From Escherichia coli (lineage in GTDB: Bacteria; Pseudomonadota; Gammaproteobacteria; Enterobacterales; Enterobacteriaceae), in the NCBI RefSeq assembly GCF_030013205.1, contig NZ_CP122648.1: a DNA stretch of 64,000 nucleotides. One strand, given 5' to 3'. Position 1 is the first letter of the stretch; each line of letters starts with the position of its first letter. The translations under genes and the position numbers were made by a program. The notes under the pieces were generated by a model. It saw only the letters and a list, made by a program, of their open reading frames with translations, had not been told where the DNA came from and ran no database searches. Positions 8,733-41,436 of the stretch are shown piece after piece.

Positions 8733-11534
8733 TTATTCGACGTTCAGCGCGTCATTAACCAGATCTTGTTGCTGTTTCTGGTGAACGGACATATACCCTA
8801 CCGCCGGAGAGGCGGAGGCCGGGCGGCCTGCATAACGCAGAGAAGCCCCAAACGGAATCACTTCACGGAAATGATGCTGGCTGCAGTACCATGCGCCCTG
8901 GTTGAGCGGCTCTTCCTGGCACCAGACAAAATCCTTGACGTGAGCAAACTGCTGCAACACTTCCTGCATCGCTTTATGCGGGAACGGGTAGAGTTGCTCG
9001 ATACGCACAATGGCGACATCGTGTTGATTGTTCTTACGACGTTGTTCCAGCAGGTCGTAATAAACCTTACCAGAACACATCACTACACGCTTAACACCCT
9101 TCGGATCAAGCTCGTCGATTTCACCGATGGCTGGCAGGAAGGTGCCGTTCGCCAGTTCTTCGAGGCTGGATACCGCCAGCGGATGACGCAGCAGGGATTT
9201 CGGCGACATCACGACCAGTGGACGACGCATCCCGCGCAACGCCTGACGACGCAGCATGTGGTAAACCTGTGCCGGGGTAGACGGTACGCACACCTGCATG
9301 TTTTGCTCAGCGCAAAGTTGCAGATAACGTTCCAGACGCGCGGAGGAGTGCTCCGGTCCCTGCCCTTCGTAACCGTGCGGCAGCAACATCACCAGGCCAC
9401 ACATCCGGCCCCATTTCTGCTCGCCAGAGGAGATGAACTGGTCGATAACCACCTGAGCACCGTTGGCGAAGTCACCGAATTGCGCTTCCCAGATGGTCAG
9501 GGTGCGTGGTTCTGCGGTGGCATAACCGTATTCAAACGCCAGCACGGCTTCTTCTGACAGTACGGAGTCCCAGACACGGAACGCGCCCTGACCGTTATGG
9601 ATGTGTTGCAGCGGCGTGTAAGTGGAACCGTTAGACTGGTTGTGGATCACCGCGTGGCGGTGGAAGAAGGTACCGCGACCGGAGTCTTCACCCGACAGGC
9701 GAACCGGAATGCCTTCATCAACCAGCGTGGCGTAAGCGAGGTTTTCCGCGCCGCCCCAGTCGAACAGTTTCTCACCGGCAGCCATCGCCTGGCGATCGCC
9801 ATAAATCTTGGCAACGCGAGACTGCATTTCAACTGCTTCCGGCACCGTACTGATGCGTTTAGCCAGTTCCTGCAGGCGCTTCATCTCAACTTTGTTCGGG
9901 TACTCTTCGTCCCATTCGTGGTTGAGGTATGGCGACCAGGTGAAAGAGTGCATGTTCATCGGACGCCACTCTGCCACTACGCAATCGCCAGCATCCAGCG
10001 CATCGCGGTACAGGTTAACCATCTCGGTGGCATCTTCCAGTGTCGCGACTTTTTCCTGCTCCAGCTTGTCAGCGTAGATTTTGCGCGGCGTCGGATGTTT
10101 TTTGATTTTCTGATACATCAGCGGCTGGGTTGCGCTCGGCTCGTCGGCTTCGTTGTGGCCATGACGGCGGTAGCACACCAGGTCGATGAAGACATCACGT
10201 TTAAAGGTGTTACGGAAATCGAGCGCCAGACGGGTCACAAAGGCAACGGCTTCCGGATCATCCGCGTTAACGTGGAAAATCGGTGCCTGAACCATCTTAC
10301 CGATATCAGTACAGTACGGCGTCGAACGGGCATCCAGCGGGTTAGAGGTGGTGAAGCCAACCTGGTTGTTGATAACGATACGTACCGTACCGCCAACTTC
10401 ATAGCCACGCGCTTTCGACATGTTCAGGGTTTCCTGAACCACGCCCTGCCCGGTCACTGCGGCGTCACCGTGGATGGTAATTGGCAGCACTTTGTTGCTG
10501 CTCGGCTCATCAAGTCTGTCCAGACGGGCACGAACAGAACCGATAACTACCGGGCTTACAATCTCAAGGTGAGACGGGTTAAACGCCAGCGCCAGGTGCA
10601 CCAGGCCGCCATCGGTCTGGAAGTCAGACGAGAAGCCCATGTGGTATTTCACGTCGCCCGTGCCGAGGTGTTCTTTATGTTTACCGGCAAACTCGTCGAA
10701 CAAGTCTTGCGGTTTTTTACCCAGCACGTTCACCAGCACGTTCAGACGACCACGGTGCGCCATCCCGAGAACCACTTCGCGGGTGCCGCTGTTGCCAGCG
10801 TGGCGGATCATCTCTTTAAGCATCGGGATTAACGCGTCACCGCCTTCCAGCGAGAAGCGTTTTGCGCCAGGGAATTTTGCGCCGAGGTAACGTTCAAGGC
10901 CTTCAGCGGCGGTCAGTTCGCTTAAGAAGCGTTTTTTCTCTTCGCTATTGAAAGTCGCGCGACCAGACTCGATACGCTGTTGGATCCAGCGTTTTTCTTC
11001 GGTGCTGGTAATATGCATATACTCGGCACCAATCGGGCCGCAGTAGGTTTGCTTGAGGGCTTCCAGCAGTTCGCCGAGTTTCATGGTTTCTTTGCCGCTG
11101 GCAAATGAACCGACGTTGAAGGTCTCCTGGAAGTCTGCTTCGGTCAGATCGTGGAAAGACGGATCCAGATCGGCCACTTTATCTTGCTGCCACAGTCCCA
11201 GCGGATCGAGATTCGCATGCTGGTGACCACGGAAGCGGTATGCGTTAATGAGCTGCAGGACTTTAACCTGCTTCACATTGGTGTCAGGGTCGGAGATCGT
11301 TGAAGAGTAACGTGAAGCGTCTTTCGCCAGGCGGCGGAAATATTCACGCGTTTGAGAGTGGAATTGATCCGGTTTGACTCCCGTACCAGGTAACTGCTGG
11401 AACGTCGAACGCCAGTTAGCGTCAACCGAGTCAGGATCGGTTAAGAAGTCTTCATAGAGCTGTTCTATCCAGCTCTGGTTTGCGCCAGAGAGGTAAGAAG
11501 AGTCCAACCAGGCTTTCAAAGCGCTGTTCTGCAT
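8733..11534 (-). CDS. sucA: 2-oxoglutarate dehydrogenase E1
   Basis: 933 aa [17 protein letters not shown]... Confidence 0.97.
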
Positions 11535-11733
11535 CGTGATCCCTTAAGCATCTTTTTTATGCTTACTTCGCCGTGGATACTACCACGCACAGTGATGTGC
11601 GTGCCGGGGTTCACTTGCGAGCTCTTGTCTACGTAGTGGCTCGCGAAGGAACCTTTAAAAACTGTCTTAGTGTCAGGGGCAGTTTTTAAAGATTTCCTGA
11701 ATAGCCGGGGATTTCCCCGGCATCAACATTTAA

Positions 11734-32095: not shown

Positions 32096-32545
32096 CAGTC
32101 ACGGCAGCGGAATCGATCATGTCCTTTTGGGTTCTTCCCGTGACGGTAAACCTGAACGGACTGGCAACGGGGGCAATGAAGGTTAACAGTGACCATGAAG
32201 GAACCTTAAAAGCGAGTATTATACCACTCATTCAACTAATTGGAGGCATTACCCATCCCTTTTAACACGATCTTTTCCATATAAAACAGGAATAAGTTGC
32301 TCCATGTTGTAATTTTTATATTTTTCATGCAAAAACAACTCCCTGCTTTCTTTTCGTCTTTTATTCACATCAATAATTTTCATATCAACTATCTCATTTT
32401 CTTTGCTATCTTATCTTTTGAATGGCGTGAATGCTTGCCCCCCATGCTTTCATTGTGCTTTTTGCCTCTAACGGTGAATATTTACCTTGTGAAATTAATT
32501 CCTCAAGCATCTCACATCTGCTCTAGTAAAGAAATAGTTCATATT

Positions 32546-32995
32546 CTATAGTTTAATGACCTCGCCAAGCTTACCCCCCTCATCGGCATAAAAAGCACTC
32601 AAATACAGATCACCCTTATTTTCTTTTGTAAACTCAAATTCCTCTATTAGAGAGTAATGTTCATATGTAGAGCGATAGGTTAAAACCACAACATTATGAT
32701 TAATTACATTACTCGCCAATAAGTTTATTTTATTTAATCTTCCAAACACCTGTTTTTTTTCTTTCATTATCGTTATAAAAACATCTTCCGATGTTGCTTT
32801 TTTAAATTCACTGCTTGTGTCAGAGTAGATTTTGTCCACTTCATTCTGATTGTATAGTTTTTGAATGATAACAACTTTATCCTGCGCAATTTTTCTAATA
32901 TCAGCATCATTCTTTATTACATTATGACTAATGTCTTTCCCCAAAAACATAAAAACCACTACTGCTACAATAACAATACTCACTTTTATTTTCAT
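32546..32995 (-). CDS. candidate immunity protein for orphan Rhs tip 2; N-terminal signal peptide or membrane anchor
   Basis: 149 aa, MKIKVSIVIVAVVVFMFLG hydrophobic N-terminus; AT-rich; start 4 bp from upstream toxin stop. Confidence 0.55.
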   Translation of the reverse strand: MKIKVSIVIVAVVVFMFLGKDISHNVIKNDADIRKIAQDKVVIIQKLYNQNEVDKIYSDTSSEFKKATSEDVFITIMKEKKQVFGRLNKINLLASNVINHNVVVLTYRSTYEHYSLIEEFEFTKENKGDLYLSAFYADEGGKLGEVIKL

Positions 32996-32998
32996 AAA

Positions 32999-33780
32999 TT
33001 AATATCCTGCCAATTGTGATAAACACCATAAACTTTGCGAACAGGTAAGTTCGCCAACAAAACCACCAAATCCGGGACCAATACTCACTGTGCCTGAATT
33101 TTTTCCGTCTGCATCCCTAACCCCTGCAATGGAATATTTTTTCAAATAACCACCTGTAGATATATAACCTTTAGTAAGATACTCCCCCGGAGAGATTTTT
33201 GCTTGCGATGCTGTACCTGACAAAGAAATACCGATTGCAGAACCAACACCATTATGTTCACACAAAGTATAATACATACAAACATCCAGATTAGCTGGAG
33301 CTCTGTCATTCCCCCCAACTGTTGCTCCCACAGCAAAACTAGCCCCTGTAAATTCGTCACCATTAAAACTTATATCAATAGATCCTGAACCAGGGAAAGG
33401 AGTAGTATAAATTTTAGAAGTCACATCCGAAGGAGCGTTATTATTATACATAGAGTTATTCATAAATTCGCCCCAATTGCTATATAATCCCAAAGCATCT
33501 GTGTATGCAACAGGATTCAACGGATACTGATAAAAATTCCATCCCCACTTCAGCCCAATCGGATCATGAGTGATATACCGCCCCTGCAGCGGGTCATAAT
33601 AGCGGTGGCGGTTGTAATACAGGCCGGACTCCTCATCATACTGCTGCCCCGGCAGGCGGACAAGCTGCTGCAGCTGATGCGGGTTCTCTTCATTCAGCAG
33701 GTTGCCCCACTCATCGTATTCTGCGCACCATTCTGTTGCCCCTTCCGTGCTGATAAGCGCCAGCGGCAGGTTATTCGGTT
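32999..33780 (-). CDS. orphan Rhs C-terminal tip 2 (core-end remnant plus glycine-rich toxin domain), no ATG/GTG start
   Basis: minus-strand frame open from about 33780 to stop at 32999; encodes ...[73 protein letters not shown]...[13 protein letters not shown] then a divergent 160-aa domain; ORF track lists the TTG-initiated part 32999..33520. Confidence 0.75.
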
Positions 33781-33893
33781 TGCGTCGTTGAGTTCACTAC
33801 ACTAAAACTCCGTGCCCATATAACCCAAGTCGGAGGCATGCCTTCCTCTGGTTCGTTCCATCTAAAATGTCTATACATAACATGGTTATTCAA

Positions 33894-34286
33894 TTATTTT
33901 TCTTTGAATTTATTCTCAATCCAGCTGTCTTTATACCTGATGAAAATTTGACACTCACCAATATTATCAATGCCTCCAGAATTTGTATTTGGAATTTGTC
34001 CAACTGCAACTATAGTTGATTCAAAATATTCAACATTGACATTATCTGTAATTATTGAAATTATATAATCATCTGGAATAGAGCCATTAGGAGTTATATT
34101 GAAGAAACTAACACCTGAAAATACCAAATAACCATCTTCTAAGTCTTCATTATCATAAAAATTCCATTCTGTTGTACCATAGGCTATCCTTGAGATTAAA
34201 TTAACCTGAATTCTAATTTGTTTACTCCATAAATCAAATTCAATTTTTTTTATTGCTCGATCACCAAGATATATTCTATCAAACAT
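33894..34286 (-). CDS. candidate immunity protein for orphan Rhs tip 1 (cytoplasmic)
   Basis: 130 aa, no signal peptide, AT-rich, starts 14 bp after upstream toxin stop. Confidence 0.55.
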   Translation of the reverse strand: MFDRIYLGDRAIKKIEFDLWSKQIRIQVNLISRIAYGTTEWNFYDNEDLEDGYLVFSGVSFFNITPNGSIPDDYIISIITDNVNVEYFESTIVAVGQIPNTNSGGIDNIGECQIFIRYKDSWIENKFKEK

Positions 34287-34300
34287 ATTATCCCCCTATT

Positions 34301-35203
34301 CTAAAAATACTCAGGCATTCCGCACATTATATCAGCCTCATCTTGATTGCTTCCCGTTGACATTTCAACATACATAGCATAATAACATTGTCCAAACGTT
34401 CCCTCTCTACATGATCTAAGTGTAAACATATGTAAAACAGAACTAAAAAAGCTTAGTGTACCGAGTGATCTAATACCGATATGTGCGGCACTACTATTCC
34501 ATGGTACAACGCGACCATTAACATCAAGGGATGGACCTTGGCCTTTCATACCGCTACCTGTTCCTGGTAAATGTGCATGTGCATGTGGTGTTGAATTGTT
34601 TGCATGCCCTATTGGATTAAGCCTATAAGCATTTGAATTATTCTGATAAAGAGTGTGAGTATCTGCACTTCCTGGATTACTGGGGGGATACGGGATTGTT
34701 CTGCCACCTACCGGTTCAACCATAATATTGCCTTTAGAATCACCTATAAACCTACCAACAGGTTGTTGAGTTATAGGATCAATAGTACAGGATTGACTTA
34801 CAGGTTTTTGTCTGGGAGAAGGTAATGATAATAGATCTAATCCCAAAGGGTCTATATACTGAACCGGATTCAACGGATACTGATAAAAATTCCATCCCCC
34901 CTTCAGTCCAATCGGATCCTGAGTGATATACCGCCCCTGCAGCGGGTCATAATAGCGGTGGCGGTTGTAATAGAGGCCGGACTCCTCATCATACTGCTGA
35001 CCCGGCAGGCGGATGAGCTGCTGCAGTTGATGCGGGTTCTCTTCATTCAGCAGGTTGCCCCACTCATCGTATTCTGCGCACCATTCTGTTGCCCCTTCCG
35101 TGCTGATAAGCGCCAGCGGCAGGCCGCGATGGTCGCAGTGGTACAGGTGGATTTTTCGCGCCGGCGTGTACACCGGGTCCATCTGGTTTTGCATCTGCGT
35201 CAC
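34301..35203 (-). CDS. orphan Rhs C-terminal tip 1 (core-end remnant plus unclassified toxin domain)
   Basis: 300 aa; first about 115 residues near-identical to rhsC core end up to [13 protein letters not shown], then unique 185 aa; begins with GTG exactly at H-repeat copy 2 boundary. Confidence 0.75.
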
Positions 35204-36495: not shown

Positions 36496-36692
36496 GGGGC
36501 TTTAACTTCCCTTTATTCATAAACTCATGGATATGGTGATCAACGGTGGTCTGATGGAGGCGCAGAGCCTGAGTAATCATGACTGAATTTCAGCCTTCAG
36601 AAGCCAGAAAAATGGCTTTAATACAATCGCAGCCCCGCTTTTCACAACATTATGCTTATAATATGAAAAATATCTTGCCTTGCATCTTTGTG

Positions 36693-37171
36693 CCTACGGC
36701 ATTGGATGATCTTTCCCTAACCTTATAGTTTCTTTTAGCCTTTCAAGCCTTAGCAATTCAACCTCGGCTTTAATATAGCCATGTGAGGCAGCCATTTTCA
36801 GCCAATTAATTGCATTATCTAAATTATAATATTTTAAATAGGAATCATCCTCCTCTGAGGATAGAATCATAGCATAATTATATTGCGCTATGATATTTCC
36901 TTGAGATGCAGACCTTGCCAGATATTTAATTTGCTTGGGTATATTAAAGCAAACATATGTATAATATTGATGTAATCGATATGACGCATCACCATCCCCG
37001 CCCTCAGATTTAATATCAAGTTCATATCTTTGATTTTTACTTAAATTAAACGATTCAGATGTTGAGCTTATTTCAATGTTATGGAGCTTAATAGGGGGGG
37101 GATTTCACCTCCATATGAACAACAAGAGAAAAAGAAAACATTTGCAATCAGAATAAATAAAAAGCACTTCA
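36693..37171 (-). pseudogene. frameshifted small lipoprotein with Sel1-like repeats; candidate rhsC cognate immunity gene
   Basis: ATG about 14 bp after rhsC stop; MKCFLFILIANVFFFSCCSYGGEI then an 8-nt homopolymer (G8 on + strand, about 37093-37100) shifts frame; with 9 nt the ORF reads about 155 aa. Confidence 0.6.
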
Positions 37172-37185
37172 TGTTGCCACCTTTG

Positions 37186-40100
37186 TTATTTTATATCACT
37201 TGGTCTCATAACTTTGCCAGGAGTGGAAGAAATGGGTTGACCTGAAGGTCCAAACGTTATCCAGCGGCCCATATTATTACCAGTTATGACATTATTACTT
37301 GTGTCAATTGCCGAGATATTATCCGTAAGTCCTGTTTGGATCGTATTAAAAAGAGGAGTATTATTATCCCACGCCATCCATACTTGCCATTGTGTATCAG
37401 CTCCAGTGACATTTGCATGAAGTGCTCTGGCTAACTTGCTGGCAAAAGATTTATTTCCCTCTCTGGCTGTACCACATGAGAATAACCAAACAGACATTCC
37501 CTTTTTATAGCGTGGATTAGCTCTGATTCTCTTGGCTAATCCCTCAGCGGTCTCATAATTTCCACTTTCATCTGTAATAAAACCAGGATATCCATGTCCT
37601 CCAATAGTAAAAACGCCAGGAATATTTATTTTATCTGTTGCAGCATGCAGTGATACATTTCTGCGTAGACTCTCATCATAGAAATTCATATCAGCTAATC
37701 CAAAAGGGTCTATATACTGAACCGGATTTAACGGGTACTGATAAAAATTCCATCCCCCCTTCTGCCCAATCGGATCCTGAGTGATATACCGCCCCTGCAG
37801 CGGGTCATAATAGCGGTGGCGGTTGTAATAGAGGCCGGACTCCTCATCATACTGCTGACCCGGCAGGCGGATGAGCTGCTGCAGCTGGTGCGGGTTCTCT
37901 TCATTCAGCAGGTTGCCCCATTCATCGTATTCTGCGCACCATTCTGTTGCCCCTTCCGTGCTGATAAGCGCCAGCGGCAGGCCGCGATGGTCGCAGTGGT
38001 ACAGGTGGATTTTTCGCGCCGGCGTGTACACCGGGTCTATCTGGTTTTGCATCTGCTCCACTGTCAGGCCGCACGATGCCAGCCAGCGGCGGCTTTCCTC
38101 ACTCACCCGGTCAGCCAGGATTTCACTTTCCAGCCGATCGAGCATCTGTACCAGCACCGGCGGGAACACCACACTGCCACCGTCTTCACCGCCGGACTGC
38201 TGAAGGGCATCCGCTAGGCTGCGGCGCTGCGTTTTCGCCAGCTCACCGGTGGCGGTTTCGACCCTGATGAGTGGCGTGAAGCTCCCCGGCTGATAAACCG
38301 TCTGGATGCGGGTTCTGTCGTTCTGTATTGTGGTCAGCCGGTCGCCGTCCCAGCCGTACCAGGTCACTTCCGGTTTCCGTGACAGCGACATCCAGCCCGT
38401 CAGGTCCCGTTCACGCCGCCACACCCGTTTTGCCACCCTGCGGCCCAGCGGGTCGTAAAGATAGCGGCTTTCAACCAGCGGCTCTGCATATTGTGTCCGC
38501 GTGTAGTGCACCAGCCGGTGCCGGCTGTCGTAATGGTACCGGTGAGTCCGCTCATCATCCGTGCGGATAACCCCTTCCGGGATGAGGTCGGTTTTCTCCG
38601 TCAGCCTGCCGTGACGGTCATACCGGTAAAGATAGTGCGCGTCACGGGCGATACGGTTATCCGGCCACATGCTGAGGGTGCTGTCCGGGTGCAGCTCCGG
38701 GTCGGGCAGGCGGTTGCCCGCCGGGTCCGTGGCATACGGGATGCGGATATCCAGATTCGCTGCGGTGGTGTGGACGCCGGTCAGCCTGCCGGTGTCGCTG
38801 TAGCTGTAACTCCGGGTCTGGCGCGGGCTGCTGATGCGGATGAGTTCGCCGTTGTCGTTCCAGGTGTAATCGCGGTCATACTGCAGGCTGTTCAGGTGCT
38901 GGCTCTGTAACTGCCCGGCAGGGGTGTAAGCGGTGGTGAGTTCATAACGGCCGAAGCTGCGCAGCGTTTCCCGGTGCAGGCGGTCGCGGGTGTACTCCAC
39001 CAGCGGTGTGTCGCCGAGTTTCATGCCTGACAGCCAGCCGCTGCCGTAGGTCAGCCATTCCACGGCGGGCAGGCTGTCCGGTATACAGCGGTTCGCCAGT
39101 CCCTGCGTGTTGTAAGCGTGTCTGGTTTCATGCTGCCAGAGCAGTGCTTCCGTCTGCGGATGATGCACCGTCTGGCGCTCACCGGTCAGGCGGCCTTTCT
39201 CATCATACCCGTAATGCACCGTCACCCGGTGGCCTTCGCTGAGATGGCTGATGCCTGTCAGCCAGCCGCGTTCGTCATACTGCCACTGCTCTGCAGGTTC
39301 ACCCTTCACGGTGCGGTGAGTGAGGCGGTCTGCTTCGTCATAGTGCCAGTGGGTGACCAGCCCCTCATCCTCGCTGCGGATAAGTTTACCGGTCAGGTCG
39401 TGGTGATAACGCTGTGTGCGGCCGTCAAAGCCGGTTTCCTGTATCAGCCGGTCGAGTACATCGTAACGGAAGGTGGTGTGGCTGCCGTTTTCACTGGTCA
39501 GGCGGATGACCCGTCCGGCAGCATCGTATTCCATACTGCGCGTCAGACCGCCCTGTGTGGTACGGATGGCCTTTCCCCACGCATCGTACTGTGTCCCGTT
39601 TCTGCTGCCGTCCGGGGCAATGACGGCGGTCAGGTCACCGGCGGCGTTGTATTCATACCGCGTTTCATGGCCCTGCGTGTCTTTCACCGCAATTAACTGT
39701 CCACGGCTGTCGTATGCGCGGTACTGACTCAGCCCTTCCTCGCGGTGCACCGCCGTCACCTGACCAAAACGGTCATGGTCATAACGGGTTACATAACCGG
39801 AACAGTCAGTGACGGTCAGCAACTGACCGTAACGGCTCCATGTCATGGTTTTCCGGCTGCCGGTGGCATCTTCCGTTGCGCAGGGTAAGTCACTGTGTGG
39901 ATTATCATAACGGTAGCGGGTGATATCGCCGTTGTGTGCGGTTTCCTGAATCAGACGGCCGGATTCATCATATTTGCGGCGCAACTCCAGCCCGTCAGTC
40001 CCGGTGGCTGACGTTAACTGGTTGTGGTGGTTATAGTAAAATGCCGATGCCCTGCCATCCGGTGTGGTGATGCGCGTGATGAGTCCCGTCACCACATCCG

Positions 40101-41436
40101 GGCTGTACTCAGTCGTCCGGCCTGCGGCATCCGTCTGTGCCTTAAGCCCACCCACCGCGTCAAACTGACTCTGCGTGACGCTGCCGTCCGCGTGTTCCTT
40201 TTTCACCACCCGCTTCAGCCCGCCTTCGCCCTGCGTGTGCAGCACTTCACGGCGGTCCAGACTGTCGGTGATGGTGATGCGGTCTTTCTCATACTGATAC
40301 GTGTAGCTTAAGCCTGCCGGGTTTAGCTGTTCTGTCACCCGCCCGTCGCTGTCGTAACGGTAACGGATTTCCGGCCGGCCCGTGTGACGGTGCGCCACCA
40401 TCCGGCCCCGGTATTTATCATCGTAAGTAAAGCTGCGCACCTGTGTATTGCTGCGGTCATACACCGCCGCCAGTTCGCCGCGTGGCGTCCAGCCATAGCG
40501 CACCAGCGGCGCGGCAGGTAAATTCTCCGGGTATTCCGGGTCGTGCGTCAGCCACACGGCAGACAGACGGATGCCGTTGTCCCGGCCATATTCGGTGTAA
40601 CCCGGCAGGGTATCAGGAAAAGCGGACGGTTCCGTCCCGCCGGAAATGGCCTGCTGCCGGGCCTCTTCTGCCCGCAGCGCCTGCGTGGTCAGTACCAGCC
40701 GGAAGTGACGCCCGGCACCATCCGTCACGCCGGTGATTTCGCCGCTGAATTCGCCGCCAGCCTCACGGTGGAACGTCTGTGTGCGCCCGAAGCGGTCCAC
40801 CAGCCCGGTCAGTACCCGGTACGGCGGCAGCGGCGCAGACAGCACCTCATCCGCCTCCGGCACCCGCTCACACCAGCCGAGTACCCACCACGGCCCCTGC
40901 GGACTGTTCGTCGCCAGATAACGATGCGGACTCAGGCGAAGCTCTTCCGGCAGCGCCTGCCAGAGTGCGGCCAGCCGGTGACCTTCATCCAGTTTCGCCA
41001 CGCCGCCGCGCACCAGCCAGAGTGACTCGCTGCGGCTGTAACCGTCCTCACCGGGAAACAGGTGCTCAAAATACAGGCTTCTGCCGCCGTTATCACTGAG
41101 TATCAGTGTGTTATCGCGCAGCTGTAAGCGGATATCCGCAGGCATTTTCCAGCCGGGGCCGAGGCTCCCCACCGGCGCGGGCGTTTTTGTCCGGTAACTG
41201 CTGTAGGTGCGGGAGAGGATGAACGGCAGCGGGCCGGGCAGGGCAAGGTCGGTTTCGCCGGGAAGGACCTTCGCACCGAGCAGCGGATTGACCGGATGGC
41301 CGGACGTCACCCCGCCGGGGCACACCGAACAGGCCACGCCGGTGGGGGCACCAATACGTACCCCGGCTGAACCCTGAACAATGCTACCGCCATACTGCGT
41401 CATGTCGCCCTGACGCGCCGCCGGTTTTCCGCTCAT
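37186..41436 (-). CDS. rhsC: Rhs family protein, rhsC-type: N-terminal PAAR-like region, YD-repeat core, DPxGL boundary, variable C-terminal toxin domain
   Basis: 1416 aa; [30 protein letters not shown]-terminus, YD repeats, [13 protein letters not shown] then unique 170-aa tip. Confidence 0.95.
37701..38057 (-). repeat. rhs core 3'-end segment repeated at 34843-35203 and about 33515-33770
   Basis: near-identical nucleotide stretches read directly in all three places. Confidence 0.85.

Follow-up and report, generated by a model that had tools for sequence, protein, structure and literature searches.

Orphan rhs-CT/rhsI modules have been described in E. coli and Dickeya (Poole et al. 2011, PMC3150448) and, as STM0292, in Salmonella Typhimurium (Koskiniemi et al. 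2014, PMC3967940). They lie on the strand of a full-length rhs gene, downstream of it, and open with a fragment of the 3'-end of the core, which has neither a start codon nor an export part. A unique tip of low G+C content follows, with a small immunity gene at once after it, and the core fragment forms a block of homology that is able to fuse the tip to the main gene. All of these features are shared by a module on the minus strand, at positions 32546 to 33793, of a 64,000 nucleotide stretch of Escherichia coli DNA (contig NZ_CP122648.1, assembly GCF_030013205.1), which as a whole is called the window here. This module is the last, distal one of two orphans at the rhsC locus of porcine enterotoxigenic E. 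coli (ETEC). It is a standard orphan Rhs cassette with a widespread but undescribed toxin family, predicted to form a small beta-barrel, and an exported NTF2-like partner. It differs from the described orphans in a homology block that is shorter and more diverged than in Salmonella (286 nt at 93% identity versus 522 bp at 95%; PMC3967940), in the motif DALGL instead of DPxGL, in a toxin that is predicted to act in the periplasm and in an immunity gene that is lost in part of the population. Our best overall reading, to which we assign a probability of about 0.5, is a silent orphan whose tip would be a periplasm-acting, disulfide-stabilized and membrane-perturbing barrel. The module and the donor of its core consist of the following parts.

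32999..33793, minus strand: whole orphan open reading frame (ORF) by translation, core remnant plus tip, 264 codons and a TAA stop codon at 33001..32999
33485..33770, minus strand: Rhs core remnant, the homology block for recombination with rhsC (Pfam RHS PF03527, E 2.8e-6)
33002..33484, minus strand: toxin tip, 161 codons, 15.5% Gly, with Cys69/Cys75 and Cys148/Cys154
32999..33463, minus strand: RefSeq coding sequence WP_077882466.1 of the Prokaryotic Genome Annotation Pipeline (PGAP), 154 aa, from an internal ATG 8 residues into the tip
32546..32995, minus strand: immunity gene, 149 aa, N-terminal signal anchor and NTF2-like DUF3887/DUF4019 (Pfam)
32887..32894, no strand: IS1 insertion site in the immunity gene of five related genomes; IS1 itself is not in the window
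37186..41436, minus strand: full-length rhsC, 1416 aa, core donor; the block homologous to the orphan is 37696..37981

An earlier note on this DNA had recognized an orphan Rhs tip with an immunity partner, and this holds: the tip and an immunity gene that looks cognate are placed downstream of rhsC, in the interval from ybfA/kdp to ybgA/phr. In the RefSeq annotation the orphan module lies at the rhsC locus, flanked by kdp/ybfA and ybfD/ybgA/phrB. Both rhsC (41436..37186) and the orphan frame (33793..32999) are on the minus strand, with the orphan downstream. The start of the open frame, given in the note as about 33780, was accurate: the frame is open over 33793..32999, with core homology from 33770. 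The remnant (33770..33485, 286 nt) shows 93.4% identity to the end of the rhsC core (37981..37696) and 94.8% identity to the first orphan (35123..34838). The repeat of the rhsC core is thus real, but it covers about 95 codons and not 85, and 103 open codons precede the tip. Perfectly identical runs of 60, 53, 32 and 26 nt are found in the homology block. RecA-dependent recombination needs roughly 25-30 bp of identity. Because the identical runs exceed this length, the orphan appears usable as a recombination substrate.

The frame had also been called start-less, without ATG or GTG. This is correct for the core remnant, as the first 91 codons contain no ATG, GTG or TTG, but not for the frame, where ATG occurs in phase three times (33463, 33451 and 33277) and GTG likewise three times. 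Upstream of ATG 33463 there is only a weak GGGG motif, 7 nt away. The core remnant has a G+C content of about 0.56, which drops to 0.29-0.41 over the tip and the immunity gene, and the unique part of the frame, put at 160 codons before, comprises 161. At its end, the core remnant reads DPIGL and then DALGL in place of DPxGL, with Ala replacing the Pro after Asp. The initial Pro, the Asp and the Gly-Leu of the demarcation motif (PxxxxDPxGL) are kept, as is the Asp of the upstream DPIGL. In the autoproteolysis of Rhs and Tc proteins, the two motif aspartates are the catalytic pair, and both are present in the orphan remnant. Ala in place of the Pro occurs in both the E. coli and the E. albertii copies, whereas all distant relatives have DPxGL. 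The core remnant also carries Q>H and G>W changes. By its sequence, the element is almost certainly an orphan rhs-CT/rhsI module.

The immunity ORF begins 4 bp past the toxin stop codon and matches the Pfam families DUF3887 (E 9.1e-5) and DUF4019 (E 1.7e-3). DUF3887 is a member of the NTF2-like superfamily, and proteins of this family usually carry export signals (PMC3924330). Residues 1-19 are strongly hydrophobic, with a Kyte-Doolittle value of 2.35 in a 19-residue window, which confirms the hydrophobic N-terminus that had been noticed in the 149 aa ORF. In its structural model, helices are followed by a four-strand sheet (alpha+beta) at a predicted local distance difference test (pLDDT) of about 85; judged from this model, the protein is a soluble NTF2-like domain on an anchor and not an integral membrane protein. 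At six further loci with distant tips, the next gene encodes a homologous protein of 132-159 aa, five with a lipobox and one with a signal anchor, and these neighbors have DUF4019 or DUF3887 matches of their own. Including the window, an exported DUF3887/DUF4019 protein directly follows the tip at seven family loci (lipobox in 5/7, signal anchor in 2/7). The proposal of an envelope-located immunity protein therefore stands, with a signal anchor here and a lipobox in 5/6 distant relatives. Since the pairing is kept down to 28% toxin identity and the immunity protein is exported, the toxin probably acts in the periplasm. The four conserved cysteines of the tip would fit such an oxidizing compartment. 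In the literature searched, no description of DUF3887 or DUF4019 as an immunity family was found. Imm-NTF2 and Imm-NTF2-2 (Zhang et al. 2012, PMC3482391) share with the partner described here the alpha+beta NTF2-type architecture of a non-catalytic binder and the position of the gene directly after the toxin. Unlike the pair in the window, the described Imm-NTF2 families are paired with cytoplasmic nucleases or JAB toxins.

For the tip itself, Pfam searches with the whole orphan, the tip alignment and each of 15 family members (E <= 10) returned the RHS core domain only. NCBIfam and PADLOC searches gave nothing meaningful for the tip, and PDB sequence searches with the single tip sequence and with a profile yielded only noise. 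A match to a nuclease or other cytoplasmic enzyme, which the earlier note had named as evidence that would speak against it, was not found in these searches. A word-indexed search detected only the E. coli and E. albertii copies of the tip, all of them orphans or fragments; with the tip alignment it gave no new relatives and was saturated by low-complexity candidates. An exhaustive phmmer search with the tip revealed 20 proteins, with tips of 28-47% identity located behind DPxGL on other Rhs fragments, and one of these relatives is from Paraburkholderia. On these alignments, the tip is a member of an unnamed family at the C-ends of Rhs proteins. The family is undescribed yet widespread and recurs on Rhs proteins across Enterobacterales and beyond. 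Conserved columns of the family alignment are G79, G81, G85, G106, G111, G136, G138, G140, Tyr71, a few Asp and four Cys. The cysteines form two CxxxxxC pairs, and the C-x5-C spacing is kept in both. No conserved His, Glu or Ser fit for catalysis is present in the tip alignment, and His77 is not conserved.

Some relatives show other arrangements. In two metagenomic loci (L014 767..1336; L011 2514..3314), the tip is called as an ORF of its own, in overlap with the end of the Rhs core ORF upstream, and one of the two begins just before DPQGL. These separate ORFs could reflect frameshifts, assembly errors or split genes. At a further locus (L012 1..6700), the tip homologue is located inside a long array of short toxin/immunity cassettes with Imm-NTF2-2, a TseH-like gene, Imm58 and several unannotated pairs, which represents an orphan/poly-immunity island.

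Structure prediction of the tip by AlphaFold2 (AF2) from 15 sequences gave a disordered stretch (residues 1-28) and then an all-beta domain, with an overall pLDDT of 74 and values of about 80-90 within the strands. For residues 29-154, the prediction is an eight-strand beta-barrel. A second AF2 run on an independent alignment of 7 sequences was all-beta again, and we consider the barrel fold probable. In a Foldseek search against AFDB50, the same predicted fold was found at the C-ends of Rhs proteins of Salmonella bongori (43% identity), Buttiauxella, Hafnia and Yokenella, and also in E. coli O157-type tips (24%), in a Moraxella CdiA and in a Caballeronia FhaB-like protein. As far as the models go, glycine-rich barrel tips are a broad unnamed class of polymorphic-toxin tips. 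One AFDB hit carries the label Ntox23. Ntox23 domains are all-beta, come from Bacteroidetes and have ND, DxxR and H motifs; this label does not fit the tip, gave no Pfam match and was rejected.

The earlier note had explained the tip differently, namely by an enrichment of GxxxG/AxxxG patterns as in membrane-inserting toxins. A helical glycine-zipper toxin of this kind would insert alpha-helices into the inner membrane, like Tse5-CT, the CdiA-CT(EC93)-type ionophores, EsxX or Tox-WTIP. With 15.5% Gly, GxxxG-like strings and no enzyme signature, the tip has some of the expected properties, and an Rhs-borne pore former exists in Tse5 (PMC9637101). However, GxxxG and small-xxx-small motifs occur as often as in composition-matched shuffles (7 observed versus 6.6 expected, and 5 versus 3.7), so the tip is Gly-rich but the zipper pattern adds no signal. 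The best 19-residue Kyte-Doolittle hydrophobicity is 0.76, far under the need of a membrane helix, and both AF2 runs are all-beta. The immunity proteins of such toxins are integral-membrane proteins, such as Tsi5 with two transmembrane helices, whereas the partner found here is a soluble domain of the NTF2-like type, held by a lipid or signal anchor. We regard a helical zipper as very improbable and the rationale given for it as not supported. A membrane target is still our best guess, on grounds other than those of the note.

The barrel itself could be of the transmembrane OmpA/OmpX type, an eight-stranded barrel that inserts into a target membrane and whose Gly-, Ser- and Ala-lined interior is a small channel. 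Its strands alternate strictly between a hydrophobic face (mean Kyte-Doolittle value of about 1.6) and a small/polar face, as expected in that case. But the conserved aromatic beta-signal at the C-terminus is missing, since the homologues end with N, D, H or G, four conserved Cys and conserved Asp residues are located on the "small" face, and the grand average of hydropathy (GRAVY) of the tip is -0.12. A transmembrane barrel therefore seems unlikely to us.

The preferred membrane-perturbing barrel was compared with VapA, VapB, VapD and VapG of Rhodococcus equi (PF05526; PDB 4cv7, 5aeo, 4csb). These are small eight-stranded, Gly-rich barrels after a disordered N-terminus, as predicted for the tip, and they share with it conserved glycines in strands 4 and 8 and a Gly-rich last strand followed by an aromatic residue. 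In the tip, the conserved glycines cluster in predicted strands 4 (G79, G81, G85) and 8 (G136, G138, G140 and G144, which is conserved as well). In VapD, strands beta4 and beta8 are kinked by glycines, and a glycine "bald" surface binds detergent (PMC4118825). The residue numbers of the tip cysteines give equal sums (69+154 = 75+148 = 223). We infer that this register fits two cross-strand links between antiparallel strands 3 and 8. Such a 3/8 pairing would favor the Vap strand order (1-2-3-8-5-6-7-4), in which strands 3 and 8 are neighbors, over a meander, in which they are not. In our view, glycine placement and cysteine register make the resemblance of the model to the Vap proteins more than generic, and the chances for a Vap-type strand order in the tip are about even. 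The predicted tip differs from the Vap proteins in its longer strands, in its four conserved cysteines, which are absent from the Vaps, and in its fusion to an Rhs delivery cage with an immunity partner. Its proposed target is bacterial, in place of the macrophage endolysosome. In the literature searched, nothing relevant on the tip family was found, including any link of Vap proteins to polymorphic toxins or secretion systems of type VI (T6SS). True PF05526 proteins of about 145 aa are also widespread beyond Rhodococcus, with members in Atlantibacter hermannii, Xenorhabdus, Halomonas, Flavobacterium and Nostoc. They are encoded by stand-alone genes, and none was seen fused to Rhs.

The DNA of tip and immunity gene was detected in 18 out of 5,426 complete E. 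coli genomes, as a single copy at the rhsC locus and as an orphan each time. In E. albertii, the module is conserved at the same locus, with an identical 5' boundary and its immunity ORF intact, and several frameshifted fragments of it occur in addition. Between E. coli and E. albertii, the ratio of non-synonymous to synonymous substitution rates (dN/dS) is 0.19 for the tip, where no more than 9 synonymous and 6 non-synonymous differences could be counted; for the immunity gene it is 0.28. Small as these counts are, they indicate past purifying selection on both genes. In the human isolate AST215 (NZ_AP043621.1; extracted locus 9001..15032), the tip of the first orphan is located on the main rhsC, the module studied here follows directly and no ISAs1 lies between the two. 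The locus of AST215 shows the state that preceded the arrival of the newest tip. From this arrangement, it can be concluded that the rhsC locus grew by successive displacement of tips and that the studied tip is the oldest.

Seven of the 18 carrier genomes have a broken immunity gene (five by IS1 and two by a 1-nt deletion) beside an intact toxin protein identical to WP_077882466.1. IS1 is inserted at the identical 8-bp site in Dutch ETEC and in French O139:H1 strains from wild boar and pig, and this shared site suggests one ancestral event which spread with a lineage. ETEC6333 is an example of the strains disrupted by IS1. In ETEC1748, a 1-nt deletion leads to a truncated protein of 86 aa. 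ETEC4067 has the same match length of 942 nt and was placed with the ETEC1748 lesion by this length. The A9 run of the immunity gene (gaaaaaaaaacagg, 32780..32790) is the likely slippage site of the deletion. In AST215 it is the toxin frame that is frameshifted. Because the seven genomes without immunity keep an identical and intact toxin frame, the tip must be harmless where it sits. The combination of broken immunity and intact toxin is the best available evidence that the tip is silent, or harmless in the cytoplasm, and bears out the suggestion that the module is silent in situ.

Transcription and translation from within the module are the basis of another explanation, in which the tip would be expressed internally from ATG 33463 by a promoter in the core remnant and would act as a toxin-antitoxin-like growth regulator, as reported for Salmonella orphan Rhs. 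The in-frame ATG 33463 is the start used by PGAP, and a sigma-70-like site (TTGTCC-17-TATGAT, 33663..33635, minus strand) is present inside the core remnant. Toxin expression in Salmonella is driven from promoters within the conserved Rhs core (PMC7043789), and the site at 33663..33635 is roughly where that work puts an internal promoter conserved upstream of many Rhs toxins. However, the scan for promoters and terminators remained at chance level, with 9 promoter-like sites versus 9.3 expected, and the sigma-70-like site cannot be told apart from a chance match. A weak Shine-Dalgarno sequence also speaks against this explanation. An exported partner could not neutralize a toxin in the cytoplasm, and seven genomes tolerate its loss beside an intact toxin frame. 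Internal expression is thus improbable.

For the silent orphan, the following course of events can be proposed. In situ, the tip would not be made in harmful amounts. Deployment would have to await RecA-type recombination of the core remnant with rhsC, as shown for the Salmonella orphan. This would place the tip behind the Rhs cage and an aspartyl autoprotease, of which both catalytic Asp are kept while the Pro of DPxGL is Ala. The tip would then reach the periplasm of a neighboring cell, presumably via the T6SS. After release, the 161 residues could fold into a compact eight-stranded, Gly-rich barrel of the Vap type, locked by the disulfides Cys69-Cys154 and Cys75-Cys148, which would be made by the Dsb system of the target. 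The barrel may bind and perturb the phospholipid bilayer and dissipate the proton motive force, as VapA does on lysosomal membranes. VapA permeabilizes liposomes and collapses proton gradients (PMC10100859). The periplasm-facing NTF2-like protein would neutralize the barrel by direct binding. Membrane permeabilization by the tip, which is suggested by analogy, is a tentative assignment that we hold slightly below even.

Membrane-depolarizing T6SS effectors are known with Tse5-CT, an Rhs tip of Pseudomonas aeruginosa (PMC9637101), and Ssp6 of Serratia (PMC6889166). Like the proposed tip, they are non-enzymatic and cause death through ion leakage. The toxicity of Ssp6 is much higher from the periplasm, and Tse5-CT is released from the Rhs cage by autoproteolysis. 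Neither has a sequence or fold relationship to the tip, and Tse5-CT is toxic from the cytoplasm too. Their immunity proteins Tsi5 and Sip6 have two transmembrane helices, different from the soluble NTF2-like domain found here.

A toxin in the periplasm does not need to act on the bilayer. It could bind or sequester lipid II, peptidoglycan or a factor of outer membrane or lipoprotein biogenesis, or it could be an unrecognized enzyme. Periplasmic or lipoprotein immunity proteins are typical for T6SS effectors which target the cell wall. For VapB, a possible ligand cavity is mentioned (PMC8329714). On the other hand, conservation in the tip is mostly limited to Gly and four Cys, without a constellation of His, Glu, Ser or Cys-His, and no match to a hydrolase family was obtained. 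We consider a binder or enzyme of this type rather unlikely, but less so than the transmembrane barrel.

Several results weigh against the silent, membrane-perturbing barrel as a whole. A Foldseek search of the tip model against the PDB gave nothing significant and thus misses the Vap match. There is no detectable sequence relationship either: hmmscan of the tip and 15 family members at E <= 10 gave no match to the Pfam family PF05526 (Vap), and hhalign of the tip against Vap alignments of 3 and 25 sequences gave probabilities of 0.3% and 1.1%, in round terms <=1%. The Vap link comes from one method applied to a predicted model. As the PDB Foldseek search and the profile comparison were negative, membership in the Vap family is not established and the similarity is one of predicted fold only. 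Strands 3-4 are one continuous stretch according to DSSP, equally compatible with a hairpin and hence a meander topology, and both strand order and Cys-Cys pairing of the tip are deduced indirectly. A fused toxin-linker-immunity model (AF2, 7 paired sequences) has both domains folded at a predicted template modelling (pTM) score of 0.45, and because of this score it is uninformative about the complex. No full-length Rhs protein with the exact tip was found in the 5,426 complete E. coli genomes and the protein databases. Lesions in 8 of the 18 copies, together with DALGL for DPxGL, also mean that the cassette may already be decaying.

Taken further, such decay would make the module a dead relic, with a non-functional toxin and an immunity gene that is kept, if anything, against relatives still firing the toxin. 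These lesions, the several frameshifted E. albertii fragments, the lost Pro of DPxGL, the Q>H and G>W changes in the core and the missing full-length partner all point in this direction. But in the seven immunity-broken genomes the toxin frame is the intact part, which is the opposite of an "immunity-only" state, and the dN/dS of the tip is low. A relic is, to our mind, about as unlikely as the transmembrane barrel.

Orphan Rhs cassettes are textbook knowledge and the module itself is ordinary, whereas its toxin family is undescribed. A study of the tip family would give a function to DUF3887/DUF4019 and add a non-enzymatic, periplasm-acting class to the Rhs toxins. Until now, only one Gram-positive intracellular pathogen and orphan "VapA/VapB family" proteins with no assigned role have been known to have the Vap fold. 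It is a doubtful though far-reaching idea that this fold is a widespread antibacterial warhead. An unnamed superfamily of Gly-rich barrel tips on Rhs, CdiA and FhaB-like toxins would then kill Gram-negative neighbors from the periplasm by proton leakage, would be activated by disulfide formation in the target and be blocked by NTF2-like lipoproteins, and R. equi VapA would be a host-directed offshoot. A real Vap-type fold in the tip would tie the mechanism of VapA to a genetically tractable bacterial killing assay. The pig ETEC/O139 population represents a natural experiment for competition assays, with intact, IS1-in-immunity and frameshifted strains as ready susceptible and immune partners.

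The window is 100% identical over 32400-34400 to porcine ETEC chromosomes, e.g., K_EC180 and ETEC4068. Downstream of rhsC, the locus contains the following elements in minus-strand order.

Between rhsC and the first orphan, minus-strand order: a broken Sel1-like gene, an IS630 scrap and an ISAs1 pseudogene
33894..35203, minus strand: first orphan module, Rhs core remnant with a different tip and a DUF6258 immunity gene
35203..34301, minus strand: core remnant and tip of the first orphan
34286..33894, minus strand: DUF6258 immunity gene of the first orphan
After the first orphan, minus-strand order: the orphan studied here, then an IS1 scrap and the ybfD H-repeat pseudogene

The immunity gene expected for the main rhsC tip (36690..37172, minus strand) looks frameshifted. 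A lipoprotein-like N-terminus (MKCFLFILIANVFFFSCC..., 37172..37068) is found in one frame and a Sel1-repeat-like body of about 130 aa, with its end at 36694, in another; PGAP has no annotation here. The frameshift could be due to a real pseudogene or a homopolymer sequencing error. The tip of the main rhsC (37186..37700, minus strand) and that of the first orphan (34301..34840, minus strand), which contains HAHAH, have no Pfam match. As these two tips are without a Pfam family too, all three toxins at the rhsC locus are uncharacterized. In its two motifs, the main rhsC reads DPIGQ and DPFGL.

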